A stretch of 64,000 nt of DNA from Sarea resinae (taxonomy: Eukaryota): positions 248,001 to 312,000 of the forward strand of contig JAPEUD010000020.1 of the NCBI GenBank assembly GCA_026026165.1, read 5' to 3'. Below the pieces are notes generated by a model, which was given only the letters and a program-made list of their open reading frames with translations, did not search any database and was not told the origin of the DNA. Within the stretch, counting starts at the first letter, position 1; each line of letters opens with the position of its first letter. Shown here piece by piece: positions 36,047 through 48,132 of the stretch. A program made the position numbers and the translations under genes.

Positions 36047-37676
36047 CGTAGGCCGCGTCTGATTTGCGCCGCGAAAAGTTCGTTTCGTCAACAGTCGCAC
36101 CTAATATGTTGATCACCAAGAATCAACAGTATCATCGCAATCTATTCTGAAATCGAATGAATCATCAGCCCGCTGTCGAATGTATGTATCTGGCTCAGGA
36201 TCTAGGGTAGGTGATCGCGACGTCGAGAGTGATCTTGTCGTACCTCAATAGGTTGGTCTCGCGCATGCGCATACAGTGGTAGTCCACTTTCGACTGGAGG
36301 GAGAAGACGGGTGGCTGTGGGATTCCGCCTAAGCACGCCGAGCGCTTAACAAGAAGGCATTTGGGCATTTGGCTCAGACAGATATCGCGAGAATGTGCGG
36401 AGCTTTCAATTCCTGAGACGAAAAGCCCAGGTGTGCTCTGTTGTCTGTGAGCTGTGAGCTGAGAGTAAAGGAAGGTCGGTCGTAGGTGGCTGTCGGAGTG
36501 TCGATGTGTCGAAGTGTCGAAGTGTCGATGATGGGATCTTCTTACTACTAGGTACCGTTAGTATCGAGGTACCTCCTCAAGGTACCTGCTCACTCTCTCG
36601 TGGCGGCACTGAGTGGCAGGTTGGTGGTGTGGAGTACAAAGTATGAGATACCCAAGGTAGCAGGGCAAGGCCAGTCCAGTCTACAGGCGGTGGTGGGCGT
36701 GGACTTGCGCAATCAACCCGTCGTCGATAGTCGTCGATACCCGGGCCACCAGGTACTCTGTACTTCCAAGGGTCGAGAGAAGGGCCGCTGCACGACGCAC
36801 GCAGCCACCGCATCCATCAATTATTGATCCACTGTGATTACTGTGATTGACAGGATGCCGCATGCGTCGAGACCGAGAGCGACTTCAGGACCAGAGCTGG
36901 AGCCGCGAAGTAGCGATACATTAGGTCTGTTGGTCTGTAGGTACCAAATATGAGGATTGGGTCTTGATCGTAATAGAGTGTTCGTATCGATACAACAAAG
37001 GGGACAAAGGTCTTACTCTAATGTCTCAAGATCCAATAACGATAATATGATGAGAGGTCCAAGGTATTCGTCAAGTAAACCTTGATCAGGTACATGATGG
37101 TCGCTCTGGCATCAGGAACCCTATCGGCCGAGCTACATCAGTTGATGAGTTTCGCCGCCGGCGCCCTCGACTCGACGCAGGTATCTTTCGAGTTTCGGTA
37201 CCTCTCTGGCAAGCACACGATGAGTCGCGTCGAGGCCATGGCCGACCGCATCACCTTACCACATCTGATACTTGCGAGATGAAGTGATCCCGATCCACCT
37301 CCATGATATCCATCGACTTACTCCAGAGTACAGCAACGATGATGATGATCAGATTGACTTCTTGTAGCCGCCTTGCCGATCTCCAGATGCCCTCACCACC
37401 ATAAGCCCACGAATTGCCTGGCCATTCGATCTTCTCGTCTTCCTCGTCCTCTTCCCCCTCTTCCTCAACGTTTCCGTACTCTAGTCTCCGACGTTGGTGT
37501 TGGCCACTCTCTCACGGCCAAGGGCATTGTCCAAACTTGACATTCACAGAGCGTGGTCGACACAAGTAACCTATCGCACACATGGTAATTGCCTACTTCT
37601 CCCGTCCACTTTCGCTGTCATCAGTATCGTACTTTGCACGCGCGATACAACGTTGGCTGTGGTAGCTGATCCAATA

Positions 37677-40600
37677 ATGTCTGTTGATAGACTCGCTCAG
37701 CTAGTCACCCGATCCGACCGCGAGACATCGATTCCTGCCATAATGCCCCGCCAAGCCCGACAACGCGGCGGAAAAGTCGCCTCAGTATCGGGCCCAGCGC
37801 ATCAATTGGGCATACTGAATGAGACCGTCAATAGGTTCTTAGGTGGGAAACGGAAGGCATGGATGGAGCAACAAGAGCCACAGACCTCGGGGGAAACGGA
37901 CCGTGAGAGGGTCAGCAAGAGGCCGCGTCTCTCAAGCTCAACGGCACAGTCGAATTCGCCGCCCTCGAATTCTTCCAATTCTCGAATAGGCACGTCGCAA
38001 GCGGCGACGCAGGACCAAGCATTGCAGACCTCGGATATTACCCCAGAAGGCCAGAGGGCGTCGGCAACCTCTCTTCCTCCCTCCAATCCCGACTCACCGC
38101 AATTGGCTAATGTGCTTGCGCCGTCCAAATCGCCGGCCGTCGAAGCCTCGACTCGGTCGACAGCCGTGCTCCCCTCGCCAGCACCCAGTGAAGAAGGCGC
38201 CCGTACAGCAGTCTTATCGAGCTCTAGCAATCGAGAGGATGGAGAGTTGTCGAATTTGCGATTGAGTGAGACTGCTCTGGATGAAGCTCTGGGCTCTTCC
38301 AGCGCCCACATAATTGGTGACACGCGGCAAAGGACCGGCTCTGGGAAACGTCCGAATATTGAAAATATAGCATCTCTCCAAGCCCCTTCTCACAACGCTT
38401 ATCCAACTCTCTCGGAACCTCCCAAGATGCAGTCTGCTCAGGCATTTGGCAGAGTATTAACATACCAAATTGCCGAAATTGGCCTCCAGCGAACCATAGA
38501 GCAGCAGTCAATTGAATCTCCACGCTTTAGCCTTCTACAGGATGCATGTGCAAGCGAGGATTGGTTCTATCTTGCGCTACATCAAGTGTACTGCATCCAG
38601 TCAGGTGCTCCAGAGGCAAATCGAACACTACCGTGGTTTGGTCCTGATAGCTTGAAAGGTCTCCAAATACTCGAAGCTCTGCTTCTTCCCAATAACCTTC
38701 TTCGACCTTCAGTGCTCGACGTGTTTAGATCGTTCCCGGTGCCTCTCCAGGGTTTCGATGCTGTTCTCTCGCACTACAAACATTGCATTCAATCCGTGGT
38801 GCAATTTTTAGAACTACTGGGGCAAAAATGGGAGACGCTTCAAGCAGCTTGCAGACAAAGAGCATACCCGCCGTTTGCGAATGAGATTGTCGCGAAATTG
38901 GGCTTGCACTCGCATATTTTTCAGCGTGTGGTCTTCACTGCCATCCATCGAAATCTATGGGGAGCGTCCGCCAACGGTTGGTGTCCGCGTGTAGAAGAGC
39001 TATTCCGGAAAAGCCAAGCAGTCCGTGCTATGAGGCTGGCCCGGACTACGAACAGTGAAGCATCTCTTTCTTCTGAAGAAGTTTATCAAGAAAATAGGAG
39101 AGCGGCACAAGAGTACCAGCGGATTCATGAACAGTATCGCCGAAGCTTGTCTTTGCAGTCGCAGAATGTGGCTTCATCTCTGCAGTCTCCAGCAAGCTCC
39201 CAGCAACAAAGTCATTTTGCACAACCCGGGCCGCCTCTTTCACAGCCTTCTCGACTCGGCTGGCATCCAGTGCAAGCGCGAGCTCCGCAACTCCCCGTAG
39301 CGGAATCTCAGCAGGTCACAAGTTCGTGCCCTGGTCCTTCTAGGTTTTCAACGCCAAGAGCACCAAACCAATATACCCCACAGCGATCGATTCAAGTATA
39401 TGTCCCACCTAACGCAATTCAATACGTGAATTCACGTGGCGTGGTTACTCCTGAAATGTTTCAAGCGCCGCAATCCGGGCATCTTGTACAAGTGGTCCCG
39501 ATGGGACATCAGAACGGAGCAGCTGGGAGGAATTTGAATCAACTCCACCCGCTACCGAGCACCCTATTACCATCAAACGGATCACTACAGCCAAACCAAA
39601 ACTCAGTCAACAACGGAAATAGCCGCCAGAGAACACAACTCAACCCTGGGGTTTGGGCTCCGCGGATAGGCAGTCAGAGCACTGCAGGCCAAAAGGGTCT
39701 CTTATTCCCACCTAACAGCAAACAAGTGCGTGCAGTTCCCCATCCCAACTCGACAATTTCAGCTCTCCATCAGGCGCGTCTCAGGAGTCCCATTCTCAGC
39801 CCGGTCGATAAACCGAACGGTTCAAAAATATCATCTAAGCTATATCAGTTCATGAAGGGATTTATGCTTGTTCCAAAGGTGATTGGTCCAAACTCCGTTG
39901 CTTGTGAATGGCGTTTTGCTATACCAGCAGACGACTTTGCATTAAAGGCTGAGGATGCGTACTCGTCTTGCGGTGGTCGCCCTACGAGAAATATCCAGGA
40001 GGGCTCACGCATCTTTCGCATTCGTTGTGTCAAAACATTTTCCGCTGAGAATCCCTCCGCTGAGAATCGTTGGGCCGTCAGCGAAAATACTTGGCCCGAA
40101 CACGTATATCTCACTATCAATGACACGATGTTAGAAACTCGACGAAAGCTTCAGCATGGCAAGGATCTTCCAGTGGACGTGACGCCCTATGTTAAGGAGG
40201 GTGATCGTAACATTCTAAGGGTCTCTATATTGTGGACCGAAAAGGAGAAACTGTCCGTCTACTACGCCTTCGCCGTTGAATCTATAGAAATTATCGGGCA
40301 CGAATCGATCAAAGACTTGTGTCTGACAAAAGGGCTGATTCTTCCACAACGCACGCTGGAAGGTATCAAGGCTCATTTGAACCCCAAGAACGATGACGAT
40401 GAAATATGCGTTGTGGATAACAATATTACCATCGAGCTCATCGATCCCTTTACTGCTCGCATCTTCGACGTACCAGTACGCTCCCAGTCCTGCATCCATC
40501 GCGAATGTTTTGACCTGGAGACGTTCCTCCAGACCCGCAAATCCCAGAAGCAGAGCCAGCCTTGCTTGGTTGACGAATGGAAATGCCCCATATGTGGTGC

Positions 40601-40856
40601 GGATGCGCGGCCACCGAGTCTGGTCATCGACGGCTTTCTGGTTGAGGTCAGGTCCCTATTGGCCCAACAAAATTTGCTAGAGACTAGGGCTATACTGGTC
40701 TCCCAAGATGGATCGTGGAAGCCCAAATCAGAGAAATCCGGTGAAGATAGATCGGCAAGCAAGCCAAGAGACGGCAAATCTTTGGCCGCTTGCCATCGAT
40801 CTAGCGCTGAAAGAGCAGTGAGCAGTGAGAGGGTCATCATCGAAATTGATGATTGA
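37677..40856 (+). CDS. MIZ/SP-RING zinc-finger protein (putative SUMO ligase / transcriptional co-regulator); start could also be 37743
   Basis: SP-RING IELIDPFTARIFDVPVRSQSCIHRECFDLETFL...WKCPICG...LVIDGFL, preceded by RRKLQHGKDLPVDVT. Confidence 0.9.
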   Translation: MSVDRLAQLVTRSDRETSIPAIMPRQARQRGGKVASVSGPAHQLGILNETVNRFLGGKRKAWMEQQEPQTSGETDRERVSKRPRLSSSTAQSNSPPSNSSNSRIGTSQAATQDQALQTSDITPEGQRASATSLPPSNPDSPQLANVLAPSKSPAVEASTRSTAVLPSPAPSEEGARTAVLSSSSNREDGELSNLRLSETALDEALGSSSAHIIGDTRQRTGSGKRPNIENIASLQAPSHNAYPTLSEPPKMQSAQAFGRVLTYQIAEIGLQRTIEQQSIESPRFSLLQDACASEDWFYLALHQVYCIQSGAPEANRTLPWFGPDSLKGLQILEALLLPNNLLRPSVLDVFRSFPVPLQGFDAVLSHYKHCIQSVVQFLELLGQKWETLQAACRQRAYPPFANEIVAKLGLHSHIFQRVVFTAIHRNLWGASANGWCPRVEELFRKSQAVRAMRLARTTNSEASLSSEEVYQENRRAAQEYQRIHEQYRRSLSLQSQNVASSLQSPASSQQQSHFAQPGPPLSQPSRLGWHPVQARAPQLPVAESQQVTSSCPGPSRFSTPRAPNQYTPQRSIQVYVPPNAIQYVNSRGVVTPEMFQAPQSGHLVQVVPMGHQNGAAGRNLNQLHPLPSTLLPSNGSLQPNQNSVNNGNSRQRTQLNPGVWAPRIGSQSTAGQKGLLFPPNSKQVRAVPHPNSTISALHQARLRSPILSPVDKPNGSKISSKLYQFMKGFMLVPKVIGPNSVACEWRFAIPADDFALKAEDAYSSCGGRPTRNIQEGSRIFRIRCVKTFSAENPSAENRWAVSENTWPEHVYLTINDTMLETRRKLQHGKDLPVDVTPYVKEGDRNILRVSILWTEKEKLSVYYAFAVESIEIIGHESIKDLCLTKGLILPQRTLEGIKAHLNPKNDDDEICVVDNNITIELIDPFTARIFDVPVRSQSCIHRECFDLETFLQTRKSQKQSQPCLVDEWKCPICGADARPPSLVIDGFLVEVRSLLAQQNLLETRAILVSQDGSWKPKSEKSGEDRSASKPRDGKSLAACHRSSAERAVSSERVIIEIDD

Positions 40857-43688: not shown

Positions 43689-43722
<34 letters not shown>
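43689..43722. repeat. (GT)17 microsatellite upstream of the RRM gene
   Basis: Perfect dinucleotide run. Confidence 0.97.
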
Positions 43723-43724
<2 letters not shown>

Positions 43725-45063
43725 AGCACAGCTAAGCCCCCAATTGTCGTCGCCTCGCCTCGCCCGACTGCCTACCTACTCCGGAGTATACCTACCGTAC
43801 CTCAGGGCTACCTTACTCTACGAATACATCGACTCTACATCGACTCTGCGCCTTACCTTACCTTAATCTTCGCCTCTACGAGTACAGAATATACTTGCGC
43901 TAAACGCTATTATTACTTCAGCGGCACCCTCCACTCCCCTCCTCTCTTCTGCTCTTTCTTCACCCTTCCGCTACCAACCTACATCTTCTACAAAAGCCAT
44001 CCGTTTGTGTGGATATCTCGTCCCTTCGTGTCCTTTTGTGTCGCGGGTGTTCTTGATTTCCTGCTTCTTCCGGGCCCGCAGTCGGTACGTTCCTGGGTCA
44101 ATCTGGCTGTGTTGTGAAAGTGGTGAGTGAGACAATTACTTTTTTTTCCATTCCGCTCTGCCAGCCCGTCCGCTCTGTGCGCCGTAAATAAGCAGCCGCC
44201 ATCTTTCGAGTCTCGGCCATCCGGCCAGGTCCTGTTTGTTGATCGTCGCTCGCACTACGACTGGGATCAGTGAGGCCATCAAAGCAGTTGGTACACCCTG
44301 ATCGTGTCTCTGGACGTCGTCAGATCTCGTTGAATGTCGCTTGCGAAGTTGTCCTCGACCGCGGCCATTCACAGAGCGCTCTCCTCCTTTTGCGCATCAC
44401 CTGGTACAGCGAAGCCGGCCTGAGGCCCTCCGTTTCCCATGTCACTTTCGCACTTATTGTCGAACGATGATCCATTGGGCATTCAATCGCGCGGCTGTGA
44501 GAGAAAGCTGAGATTGCTTGACTGACGTGTATCCAGATTCACCAGTGATCTCATTCTGCCTGCATCGAAAGTCCTTTCGTAACCGCAACTCAGACCGTCA
44601 TTCCTTAACGACCGCACGCCAGTATTGGAATTCGTCATACGCGGCGTTTTGGGAGATTTTGCTTCCTCGATCCACTTCACCAGTACTTGCCGTCTCCCGC
44701 CTGTCTCGCTCGACCTGACGTCTTTCGATACTCTCACCCGAGGACCATCTCCTGGAATCAATTCGGTATTGGTCGTCTCTTTGTGCCAAACGCGCATACG
44801 TTTTACGCCTGACGGAACTTGACGAATTCCTCTCCTCAAGGACTTGATTGATCAGCATTGTATGTCGCCCTCGTTGCAAGATCCATTGATCTCCGACGTG
44901 GATTGCAGTGAATATTGTGGCTAATTCTTTTATATGGTTCCAGATTCTGCTTGACTAACTCTTGCCTCTTATCTTTTACTTTCAATTTGATTTCAACACT
45001 TTGTCAGCCAAGTTCAAATTCACAGATACGACTCAGAGCTCCAAGTCTTTGCGATTATCAAAA

Positions 45064-47344
45064 ATGAGTTTTCCAAATTACGATTCCTTCCAGGGCCAGC
45101 AAGGTACCGAAGAAGGCGGTGCGGTCCCTACCGGTGCGGCTCCTCAGCAGCATACCCCGCTCGGTCAGCCTTCCGACAATTCTCCAGCTCCTTTCCAACA
45201 AGGCAATCCCGGCGAGCCAGGGTCTGCTTCCACCCCACAGCAAGGTGGAGATGCCAAGACAACTCTTTGGTAAGTTTGCTGTAAATGCAAATGCACTCTG
45301 TCCATGTTTCATTTTGCGCGCTCAGGCGTGCAGTGAACAAAGCTATGTCTGTCCTAGACGCAATAACCTTCAAGCCGTGATATGCGGTGGAAGAAAAGCT
45401 TCTATGGGAAACGACTGGCTTACATTTCATCATATAGGATGGGCGAATTGGAGCCATGGATCGATGAAAATTTCGTCCGCAGCGTCTGGTTTGGTATGGG
45501 AGAGCAGGTCAACGTGAAGATGATTCGTGACAAGTTCTCTGGGTAAGCTTTTCTCTTCGACATGTGAGATCAGACTTTAATGCGTACTGATTTGCAGCAG
45601 CAACGCCGGATACTGTTTCGTCGACTTCTCTTCTCCAGCTGCGGCTGCCAAGGCTCTGACTTTGAATGGGACAATTATTCCCAACTCCAACCGTCCGTTT
45701 AAGCTTAATTGGGCATCTGGTGGTGGCCTCGCTGACAGAAGGTGAGTAGCTCTGTTAACACTCATTTTGCTGCGGAAATGCTAACGATACATAGCCGTGA
45801 TGACCGTGGCCCCGAATACTCAATCTTCGTCGGCGATCTTGGTCCGGAAGTCAACGAATATGTTCTAGTTTCTCTCTTCCAGAGCCGCTTCCCGTCTTGC
45901 AAGTCTGCCAAAATCATGACCGATCCTATCAGCGGAATGTCTCGTGGCTATGGCTTTGTCCGCTTCTCGGACGAGGGTGATCAGCAACGTGCTTTGACCG
46001 AAATGCAAGGAGTCTATTGCGGCAACCGCCCGATGCGCATCTCAACCGCGACGCCAAAGAATAAGAGCGGTGGCGGTGGGCCCGGCGGCATGGGCATGCC
46101 TGGTGCTGCTGGTCCTGTTGGGATGTACTCAATGGGTGCTCCACCGATGGGCTACTATGGCGCTCCTCAACCCATGAACCAGTTCACTGATCCCAACAAC
46201 ACCACGGTCTTTGTTGGCGGTCTCTCTGGGTACGTGACCGAGGATGAGCTTCGTTCCTTCTTCCAGGGCTTTGGGGAAATTACATACGTCAAAATCCCTC
46301 CGGGCAAGGGTTGCGGTTTCGTGCAGTTCGTCCAGCGCCACGCAGCTGAGATGGCCATCAACCAGATGCAAGGATATCCGATCGGCAACTCCCGTGTTCG
46401 ATTGAGCTGGGGCCGCAGCCAGAACAACTCAGGCCCTGCCGGTACTCCTTACCGCCCGGCCCCACCACCACCGGTCTATCCATCTATGGGAATGCCTCCT
46501 TCGCATCCTTACGGCAATTTCGCTCCAATGAAGGTTCGTTAATAAGCCCTGATATTATGAGACACTCCTAACTAGATTTCATAGTAAGAACATTTCATCT
46601 TTCTGAGTCTCGCAGCAGGAGTTCGTGCGTCAAGCATTGAGGGTTTCGCTTCTCAGTCGGCAATCTTTTTCCTTGAAATGCCTGCTTCTTGATCGGCTGT
46701 TCTCCTCTTAGCGTTTCTCCAAAAGTGAACCGGTGGAAATTTGCAAAAGTTTAGAGGCTGTAATACTTCCGTTTTTGTCCTTCTATAAGCCTTTAAACGG
46801 GGTGTACACCAGTGCTTCTTTCTTTCTGGACGTTTTCTTCAACGGCATATGGTTCGCCATCCCTGTAACTACTTGGCCAATGTCGCATTTGAAGATGAAC
46901 TTATACGTGCAAGTTGTGACACCATTCCTTCTAGAAATTTCATGATTATTTCCTGTGGAGAGCCGATGACTTCGTTTTCTTTGACAGAACAAGCGACATC
47001 TCGTACTTTCAAGGATTTTTACGTTGACTTCTCTGGTTCAAATCAGTCGAGCGTTCTGAGTGTAATCTTCTTTCGGGTGGAGCGTCTTTGAGACTGAACA
47101 AAGTCAAGATCCAAATAGTGCTAACCAAGCTTTCTCTAGTCCTCACGCTGCCCATATGCACCCTCCACCGATGCCTGGGTCAATGCCGCAAGGTCCTCCT
47201 GGGTCTTATCCACCCGACGCGCCGGGTCCTGCTGACCCTATGGCCGTTCAGAACATCAACGAGATGTACATGGCACAGAATCAAGGGGTCAATGACAGAC
47301 TCGAAGCTGACAGCAAAGGATACGACAGTGTGTTTGCGCAGTAA
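45064..47344 (+). CDS. Three-RRM protein of the Nam8/Ngr1/Csx1 family; short form ends at TAA 46585-46587, long form at TAA 47342-47344
   Basis: KTTLW|MGELEPWIDENFVR; YSIFVGDLGPEVNE...SRGYGFVRF; DPNNTTVFVGGLS...GKGCGFVQF...RLSWGRSQ. Confidence 0.93.
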
Positions 47345-48132
47345 GCACGTTTCTGCTGTCAAAGACCGGCACGTACGAAAGCTTTCAGCTCTGCGGATAC
47401 GATCCTACAAAAGCTGCATTTTTCATTCCCTTCCGAACACTTTTTGCATCCTCAGTCTGCTGCGACCTTAAACTCTACCTTGTCCTTTCTATCGGTTCCT
47501 GGCGGCCTTCCTTACCATGTCCGATCTGTTTTCTTCTGGCGCCAAGTCTCAGAAGGCAACGAATGATCTTACTTCGGTCTTTCCAGTCATCTGATGCTGT
47601 TGGCAATGATTGCATTGAAAAGCTGGAGCCTGTCGTATGTGTGAAGCATTTGGTGTTCTAAGGCTCGTGCTTTGAGTGGATGCATCCAGGAGTCTAGATT
47701 GGTAGTAATACATCGAGGGGGGCGTCTTGACCCCCTTTCCTCCTTTGTTTTTGAATCTCGTTCATTCTCATCAAAATCTACCGAGAAGCTCCAGAATGGG
47801 ATTCAAGTAGTAGCTCTCAGACAAAATAATATATTTTCTATGTGTTAGAATTTAACTCCCAGCTAAGGTTGTTATGCTTACTATACCCCATAACGTCGCG
47901 ACTGCCCAAATGGAAGGCTCCTGCCAGAATCTTGTTCGCCTCAAGACCCAAACAAAAGGTCACCACTACACCGTGGTGCTCGAGCATGTTTCCTTTGATA
48001 AACAACTTCACTCCATCATCCATCGCTCCCCGCGGTTAAGAAAAATCTTATGTCGCTTTGTTTGCTTTAACTTAATATCTTTCGACAGATCACTCTCGCA
48101 GGATCGGCACGTACGATCCCTTTACACTCATC

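Follow-up and report, generated by a model that had tools for sequence, protein, structure and literature searches.

How can a single splicing event both end a protein and open the way to a longer one? This question is raised by a gene in a 64,000-nucleotide stretch of the Sarea resinae genome (contig JAPEUD010000020.1 of GenBank assembly GCA_026026165.1, positions 248,001 to 312,000; the whole stretch is termed here the window, and coordinates are window positions). The gene, which would encode an RNA-binding protein with three RRM domains, appears to end in one intron nested within the 5' splice site, or donor, of another, in such a way that removal of the inner intron creates, at one joint, both a stop codon and the donor needed to reach a hidden terminal exon. 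Such an arrangement might choose between a short and a long C-terminus, might be an obligatory two-step route to one protein, or might include a relic whose second step is unused. The reading preferred here, with a probability of roughly 0.55, is that the short and long forms are both genuine products of this locus and that its last intervening sequence is a spliceosomal twin intron (stwintron) of the donor-split type termed [D1,2]; a functional [D1,2] stwintron at this place is considered very probable.

An intron nested within a split donor

Exon 4 of the gene ends with ATG AAG (46528-46533), is followed by a 51-nucleotide intron having its own donor, branch site and acceptor, and continues with TAAGAA; each of these elements, and likewise the branch site and acceptor of the outer intron further downstream (Table 1), lies exactly where a sequence-only reading of the window had placed it. 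Base G46533 doubles as the last base of exon 4 and as base 1 of the outer intron: once the internal intron is removed, this G and the adjoining TAAGA (46585-46589) form a rebuilt donor, GTAAGA. In the available text of PMC9024468, a [D1,2] stwintron is defined by an internal intron located between nucleotides 1 and 2 of the external donor (G1/U2RWGY; slashes mark such boundaries throughout). The internal intron of the window is a canonical U2 intron that occupies precisely this position; an external branch site and acceptor lie downstream and join a real exon; the splicing intermediate is present in RNA; and removal in one step, using the outermost sites, leaves G1 behind and shifts the frame by +1, both here and in the seven related loci described below (8/8).

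The RNA data come from one run, a wood-decay metatranscriptome in the form of contigs (whose depths cannot rank isoforms), which was compared with window positions 44950-47750. A 542-nucleotide contig joins 46319-46533 to 46585-46909 with 0 mismatches, skipping exactly the 51 nucleotides bounded by GT and AG and placing TAA at the joint, as is expected if excision yields a protein ending in APMK. Because this contig lacks the internal intron and runs at least 325 nucleotides past the TAA, the one-step product exists as RNA.

The possible splice paths were tested in silico by joining pieces of the window by their coordinates. Read-through of the internal intron, in which an in-frame TAA occurs at 46540-42, gives K-V-R-stop, which agrees with the retained form that had been proposed. 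Direct splicing from 46534 to 47139 is out of frame, also as proposed, and meets a stop after 31 codons. The two-step path, in which exon 4 ends at 46532, enters at 47141 a frame that stays open up to the stop at 47342-47344, so that the otherwise orphan open reading frame (ORF) there becomes the end of the protein; moreover, the AA/T junction predicts asparagine (N), which is the ancestral residue at this point. By their coordinates, the exons add up to 398 codons in the short form and to 465 in the long one.

The geometry by itself says little. The pattern G/GTNNGY..CTRAY..YAG/TRWG matches the window 3 times, as against 0.83 expected in shuffles, and the other two matches, near 37886/37902, are chance matches antisense to an ORF (37485-40856); with about one chance occurrence per window, motif geometry alone was rejected as evidence. 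Since the bare geometry is common by chance, its significance rests on the exon context and on conservation.

The distal exon and its fate among relatives

A search with the distal exon alone retrieves RRM proteins (8 of 14 candidates), whose C-termini it matches at 60-68% identity. In a further search, for which the tail region of the relative P0001 served as query, 412 of 726 candidates reached E<=1e-5; the best 120 of the 412 were taken, the set then comprising 124 proteins. An AP[LMI]-N-[PST] junction with more than 50 residues of tail behind it occurs in 33 of these 124, among them proteins from Tuber, Morchella, Orbilia/Arthrobotrys, Lipomyces, Limtongia, Saitoella, Pneumocystis, Neolecta and Savitreella. 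The N junction is likewise present in transcript-sized records from relatives, such as P0001 (450 amino acids on a 1,994-nucleotide contig) and P0009 (466 amino acids on 2,409 nucleotides); because each has a complete ORF and only some 2 kb of contig, which leaves no room for the introns, P0001, P0009, P0013-16 and P0022 are read as probable transcripts. From these comparisons the distal exon is the ancestral C-terminus of a Nam8/Csx1/RrmA-type protein across Ascomycota. The tail matches no Pfam family, and in a comparison with solved structures, the Nam8 C-terminus included, the best E was 0.74 for the single sequence and 0.83 for a 16-sequence profile, neither being significant.

A metagenome scan with the end of exon 4 as query provided 80 loci that were kept. 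In 40 of these an intron of 48-80 nucleotides lies directly between the last sense codon and the stop, as in the window (termed here nested loci); in 22 the stop follows the last codon immediately (plain loci); in 10 there is no intron through ..M-N-P.. (fused loci: L042-44, L046-51 and L079); and 8 are uninformative (3 contig ends and 5 other tails). The fused loci encode ..A-M-N-P-N-A-H-H-M-H.. directly, with the tail of L079 having diverged, and theirs is the footprint that would be expected from loss of the whole intervening sequence by way of a fully spliced long-form mRNA. The distal exon is detected by a hidden Markov model of the tails in 22 of these 80 loci: among the fused loci in 9, among the plain loci in 6 (L061 and L068-72) and among the nested loci in 7 (L001, L004, L008, L010, L014, L015 and L018). 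It is undetected in the remaining 16 plain and 33 nested loci; for the latter a broader model added no match below E 1, some of these absences being weak, as the DNA available downstream ranges from 92 to 2,451 nucleotides. The absence of a detectable distal exon from so many loci implies that a protein ending at K or Q suffices in many lineages.

AG/T precedes every distal exon found. Six plain loci read AAG/TAGTT, where the donor GTAGTT overlaps the TAG stop, and two of these loci match long proteins closely: L071 and the Tuber proteins P0011/12, and L068 and the transcript-like P0016, agree at 98.5% each, with 1 of 68 residues different. That single residue is taken to be the junction residue, and the matches imply that the stop-overlapping donor is used in vivo in a truffle-like lineage. 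Where the internal intron and the distal exon occur together, the layout AAG/GT..AG/TAAG is kept without exception (7/7), as conservation in orthologues was expected to show if the two-step proposal held. Considering these seven loci together with the window, the rebuilt donor is GTAAGA or GTAAGC in 8/8, the two-step path is open in 8/8 and the direct path is frameshifted, with an early stop, in 8/8; a CTRAY branch site 13-29 nucleotides before the acceptor, and YAG/T, are found in all seven relatives. Among non-redundant loci, GTAAG is rebuilt in 7/7 with the exon and in 14/29 without it (Fisher p 0.027, uncorrected for relatedness). In seven loci lacking a detectable distal exon (L037, L038, L053, L054, L066, L020 and L025), the last exon base is A or T (AAA, CAA or AAT), with which no GT donor is possible.

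Could a single step instead suffice for the long form, whether by splicing from the contiguous GTAAGA at 46584-46589 (TAAGA preceded by the final G of the small intron) or by translation from an ATG within the distal ORF? Public gene models of lichen fungi do take such paths (for example P0004, as judged from its protein), and the contiguous-donor path is open in L010. That path is closed in the other seven of the eight loci, the window included, where TAA is met after K-V-R, and it never yields the ancestral N; as for the second route, the ATG that opens the orphan ORF is not conserved, being absent from L001, L014 and L015, and hence the distal exon must be reached by splicing. A one-step origin of the long form is thus regarded as highly improbable. 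On the loci compared, the nested path is the only general in-frame route and the sole one restoring the ancestral N; the case for [D1,2] two-step splicing, taken at the level of the group rather than of this one fungus, is strong, if indirect.

A practical consequence concerns annotation. Ten named lichen-fungus models that include the tail (P0004, P0007, P0008, P0017-21, P0023 and P0024, all but P0023 from metagenome-assembled genomes) have ten different aberrant junctions at the split donor, which are wrong probably because gene finders cannot model such a donor. P0004 has 17 residues inserted between K and the tail, an insert that would fit read-through of the 51-nucleotide intron with the last G of that intron used in a GTAAG donor.

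Selection on the distal exon bears on a further alternative, according to which the gene has an ordinary last intron before its stop and makes the short protein only, the distal ORF and its splice signals being an unused relic that is being lost, as in most relatives. Such a course of events is suggested by the fact that the sole RNA form seen is the one-step form, continuing well past the stop, by the frequency of distal-exon loss (33 of the 40 nested loci), and by the retention of GTAAG in 17 of those 33, which indicates that the signals can outlive the exon. Yet the exon of the window retains 67 open codons, the conserved motifs ..LNEMY..DRLEAD..GY.SVF.Q and the ancestral stop position, and is preceded by a CTAAC branch site 15 nucleotides from a YAG/T acceptor. 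Between distant loci, the proportion of synonymous differences (pS) in the exon is 0.64-0.93, which is near saturation, as against 0.21-0.53 for nonsynonymous differences (pN), and an unselected ORF of such age would be broken; in the two close pairs, the ratio of nonsynonymous to synonymous rates (dN/dS) is 0.04 (L014/L015) and 0.02 (L004/L008). These values point to purifying selection on the distal exon in relatives with the nested layout, and make it quite improbable that the exon of the window is a relic.

Short and long forms weighed

The sequence that follows the stop of the short form is conserved to an unusual degree. In many loci it contains a conserved element, TTCTCC-NN-TTAGCGTTA .. 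AAAAGT .. GG.TGG .. TGCA .. AAAAG, which lies at +110 to +134 after the stop in L023, L027, L040, L053, L056, L059, L062-66, L001, L010, L014 and L015, and which in the window sits both within the outer intron and within the RNA contig. Motifs were counted in the 300 nucleotides after the stop in 52 non-redundant loci and compared with shuffles: TTAGCG occurs in 37 loci (shuffle mean 3.7), GGAGTT in 32 (2.8), at +28 to +54 in most, and AAAAGT in 30 (1.9), and in most loci the spacing between each motif and the stop is constant. No variation is seen in the core TTCTCC-NN-TTAGCGT across 17/17 aligned loci, whether or not the distal exon is present; TTAGCG and GGAGTT are missing from five truffle-like and related plain-intron loci of the non-redundant set (L061 and L068-71). 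A structured RNA was considered and rejected (RNAalifold gave 0 pairs and Rfam 0 matches at E<=1), so that the element is read as a linear site. The first 25 nucleotides after the rebuilt donor are 69% pyrimidine, as against 53-62% further on. The region is best read as a functional 3' untranslated region (3'UTR) of the short message that may have been kept even where it doubles as an intron, and its preservation within the outer intron favours two real products.

It could be argued instead that the stwintron is obligatory and that there is no switch: the 465-residue protein would then be the sole intended product, and the one-step RNA a transient intermediate or a substrate of nonsense-mediated decay. 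In the available texts of PMC6616335 and PMC5587772, known stwintron intermediates are by-products that need special reverse-transcription PCR to be seen, and the strong purifying selection on the distal exon in nested loci, like the fact that a stop at the joint is inherent to a GTAAG donor in that phase, is what such a view would predict. On the other hand, it is the one-step form that was assembled, while the fully spliced joint is not covered by the contigs (which cannot rank the two); the outer-intron elements are conserved also in loci where the same region can only be 3'UTR; and the 33 of 40 nested loci without a detectable exon imply that the short protein is viable alone. An obligatory stwintron is considered rather unlikely.

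Several observations weigh against the reading in which both forms are genuine products. No RNA record joins 46532 to 47140, and the contigs leave 46924-47205 uncovered. The probable transcripts P0001 and P0009 have at best 64-69% identity to internal-intron loci, no long-form transcript has been matched to a proven internal-intron locus, and these two may derive from plain or fused genes; nor was any species with both short and long records found among the related proteins. Position 6 of the rebuilt donor is A, where the consensus is a pyrimidine. GTAAG after the stop, occurring as it does in 17 of the 33 nested loci that lack a detectable exon, is not specific to use as a donor, and could be retained through a TAAG stop context or simple inheritance. 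Lastly, a stop at the joint is nearly automatic for a GTAAG or GTAG donor in such a phase, so that in loci which retain the exon it says little for selection on the short form. The earlier claim of a [D1,2] stwintron thus stands as regards all of its sequence features and its first splice, which is seen in RNA; its switch-like stop is in part a by-product of the donor's phase. Apart from these observations, a contig covering 47274-47742 (depth 10, 5 mismatches) takes in the last part of the distal exon together with over 400 nucleotides beyond; it may represent a strain variant, 3'UTR, the neighbour's transcript or a different one.

If both forms are genuine products, then the following sequence of events may be envisioned. 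In the first step, which is the one seen in RNA, the internal intron is excised, placing TAA right after the K codon and G46533 against TAAGA. The resulting RNA would be a coding-complete message for 398 residues ending in APMK, with the conserved linear element in its 3' region. In the second step, the rebuilt GTAAGA would be spliced to the acceptor at 47139, converting AAG to AA/T, and so K to N, and adding the ancestral 67-residue tail to give 465 residues. At 556 nucleotides the outer intron is longer than usual for fungi of this kind, and its removal is probably slow or partial; many relatives would have kept the short form only. Nam8 and TIA-1 help weak 5' splice sites that adjoin U-rich tracts; the pyrimidine-rich stretch after the rebuilt donor and the conserved element are candidate sites for setting the isoform ratio, possibly, as a speculation, through the protein itself. 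A broader conjecture, which is unlikely to hold in full, is that the locus descends from an ancient two-state device: in Ascomycota at large, the stop would overlap the donor of the last intron, the unspliced RNA giving the short protein and the spliced RNA adding the 67-residue tail; a nested intron would later have split this donor in one large branch of filamentous ascomycetes, after which the long form would need ordered two-step splicing; and the protein, as a relative of a 5'-splice-site helper, would set its own isoform ratio via TTCTCC..TTAGCGTTA and the pyrimidine tract.

The remainder of the gene is summarized in Table 1. Introns 45543-45597 and 45742-45794 are verified by an RNA contig, and Pfam assigns one RRM_1 match to exon 3 and two to exon 4. 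P0009, an orthologue, aligns in two stretches (E 6.7e-74) with yeast Nam8 as present in U1 small nuclear ribonucleoprotein structures (PDB 5zwn chain V), and short relatives carry the public label 'mRNA binding post-transcriptional regulator', as is given to Csx1-like proteins. RrmA is the Aspergillus nidulans homologue of Csx1, and RrmA, Csx1 of Schizosaccharomyces pombe and Nam8 of Saccharomyces cerevisiae are, like the protein considered here, triple-RRM proteins, according to the available text of PMC4282371. Based on these labels and that text, the gene appears to encode a triple-RRM protein of the Nam8/Csx1/RrmA type. Upstream of it, at about 43700-43760 (+), is a simple repeat of the (TG)n type, seen as ..CVCVCVCVCV.. 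in the ORF listing. The long ORF at 37485-40856 (+) is a fast-evolving neighbour gene; it contains PF02891, a zinc finger of the MIZ/SP-RING kind, and the closest relative with a name is from Pycnora praestabilis (51% identity over 31% of the query).

Table 1. Features of the gene and of its nested last intervening sequence (window coordinates).
Feature	Position	Strand	Remarks
Coding exon 1	45064..45269	+	ATG at 45064; N-terminus aligns with orthologues P0004/P0009
Intron 1	45270-45437	+	GTAAGT..ATAG; placed from the sequence and orthologue proteins, outside RNA contig cover
Coding exon 2, start of RRM1	45438..45542	+	RNA contig joint 45542 to 45598 (skip 55, GT..AG)
Coding exon 3, remainder of RRM1	45598..45741	+	Pfam RRM_1 E 1e-05; RNA contig joint 45741 to 45795 (skip 53, GT..AG)
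Coding exon 4: RRM2, RRM3, Pro-rich end ..APMK	45795..46533	+	Pfam RRM_1 E 2.4e-33, two stretches
Internal intron, 51 nucleotides	46534-46584	+	GTTCGT..CTAAC 46568-46572..ATAG; excised in RNA contig
TAA stop of the one-step (short) mRNA	46585..46587	+	Seen at the joint of the RNA contig
Outer (external) intron body	46585..47139	+	556 nucleotides including G46533; branch site GCTAAC 47120-47125; acceptor CTAG ending 47139
GGAGTT motif	46618..46623	+	33 nucleotides after the stop; overlaps GTTCGT, the same hexamer as the donor of the internal intron
Conserved linear element	46698..46765	+	TTCTCC 46700-05, TTAGCGT 46708-14, AAAAGT 46721-26, ..TTTGCAAAAG..
Distal terminal exon	47140..47344	+	T47140 completes AA/T (N); 67 codons; stop TAA 47342-47344

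Comparison with known systems

In the full-text literature no description of a stwintron for this gene family was found, in keeping with the earlier statement that none was known for Nam8/Ngr1-family genes, and those stwintron papers that contain 'RNA-binding' use the term otherwise; earlier surveys or supplements might nonetheless list the gene. The available text of the RrmA paper (PMC4282371) contains no 'intron', 'splic' or 'isoform', that of PMC5639578 makes no mention of RNA-binding, csx1, Nam8 or Ngr1, and there is no RRM gene in one text supplementary file of PMC9024468. What would be new here is that a [D1,2] stwintron occupies the last intron position in a gene for a conserved RNA-binding protein, and that its intermediate is a stop-terminated, complete message. 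Stwintrons have so far been treated mainly as curiosities of intron evolution, and their intermediates as by-products, whereas at this locus the intermediate is a stop-terminated message with the complete coding sequence of a conserved post-transcriptional regulator. Moreover, the relatives display every stage, from plain intron to nested intron, exon loss and complete intron loss, and thereby provide a natural series in which to study the origin of nested introns, the loss of terminal exons and the question of whether ordered splicing chooses isoforms.

In the recursive splicing or 'intrasplicing' of animals, as at this locus, a first splice regenerates a 5' splice site that is used by a second reaction; there, however, the intermediate is not known to be a stop-terminated complete mRNA, nor the upstream exon to become one base shorter. 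Closer parallels are found among fungi. For the sister and unique [D1,2] stwintrons of Hypoxylaceae, the available texts of PMC9024468 and PMC12403724 describe one-step removal at the outermost sites as leaving G1 and causing a +1 frameshift, just as computed here; those stwintrons are mostly young, species-specific insertions, whereas that of this locus is old and lies at an ancestral intron position. The [D5,6] stwintron of rtnA, as described in the available text of PMC6616335, is likewise linked both with alternative splicing and with the loss of an exon in evolution, and is conserved over many classes of Pezizomycotina; it differs in that its donor is split between nucleotides 5 and 6 and in that its outcome is exon skipping near the 5' end, rather than a choice of C-terminus.

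The nearest counterpart is the [D1,2] stwintron of lipS in Aspergillus nidulans, A. niger and other Leotiomyceta, which is of the same type, its donor being split between G1 and U2 (PMC5639578, in the text available, as for the other statements on lipS here). There too a standard intron is found at the same place in early-diverging classes (Pezizomycetes and Orbiliomycetes), with repeated losses by lineage; correspondingly, the truffle-like loci considered here have a plain intron, other loci a nested one and some none at all. The lipS stwintron differs in being an internal intron of an enzyme gene, with an intermediate that is not a complete message (PMC5639578), whereas here the last intervening sequence is concerned, the first splice makes an in-frame stop, and the outer intron, of 556 nucleotides, carries a conserved element. 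The history proposed here, in which a nested intron would have arisen inside a standard intron and would later have been lost in places, parallels that given for lipS and bioDA (PMC5639578).

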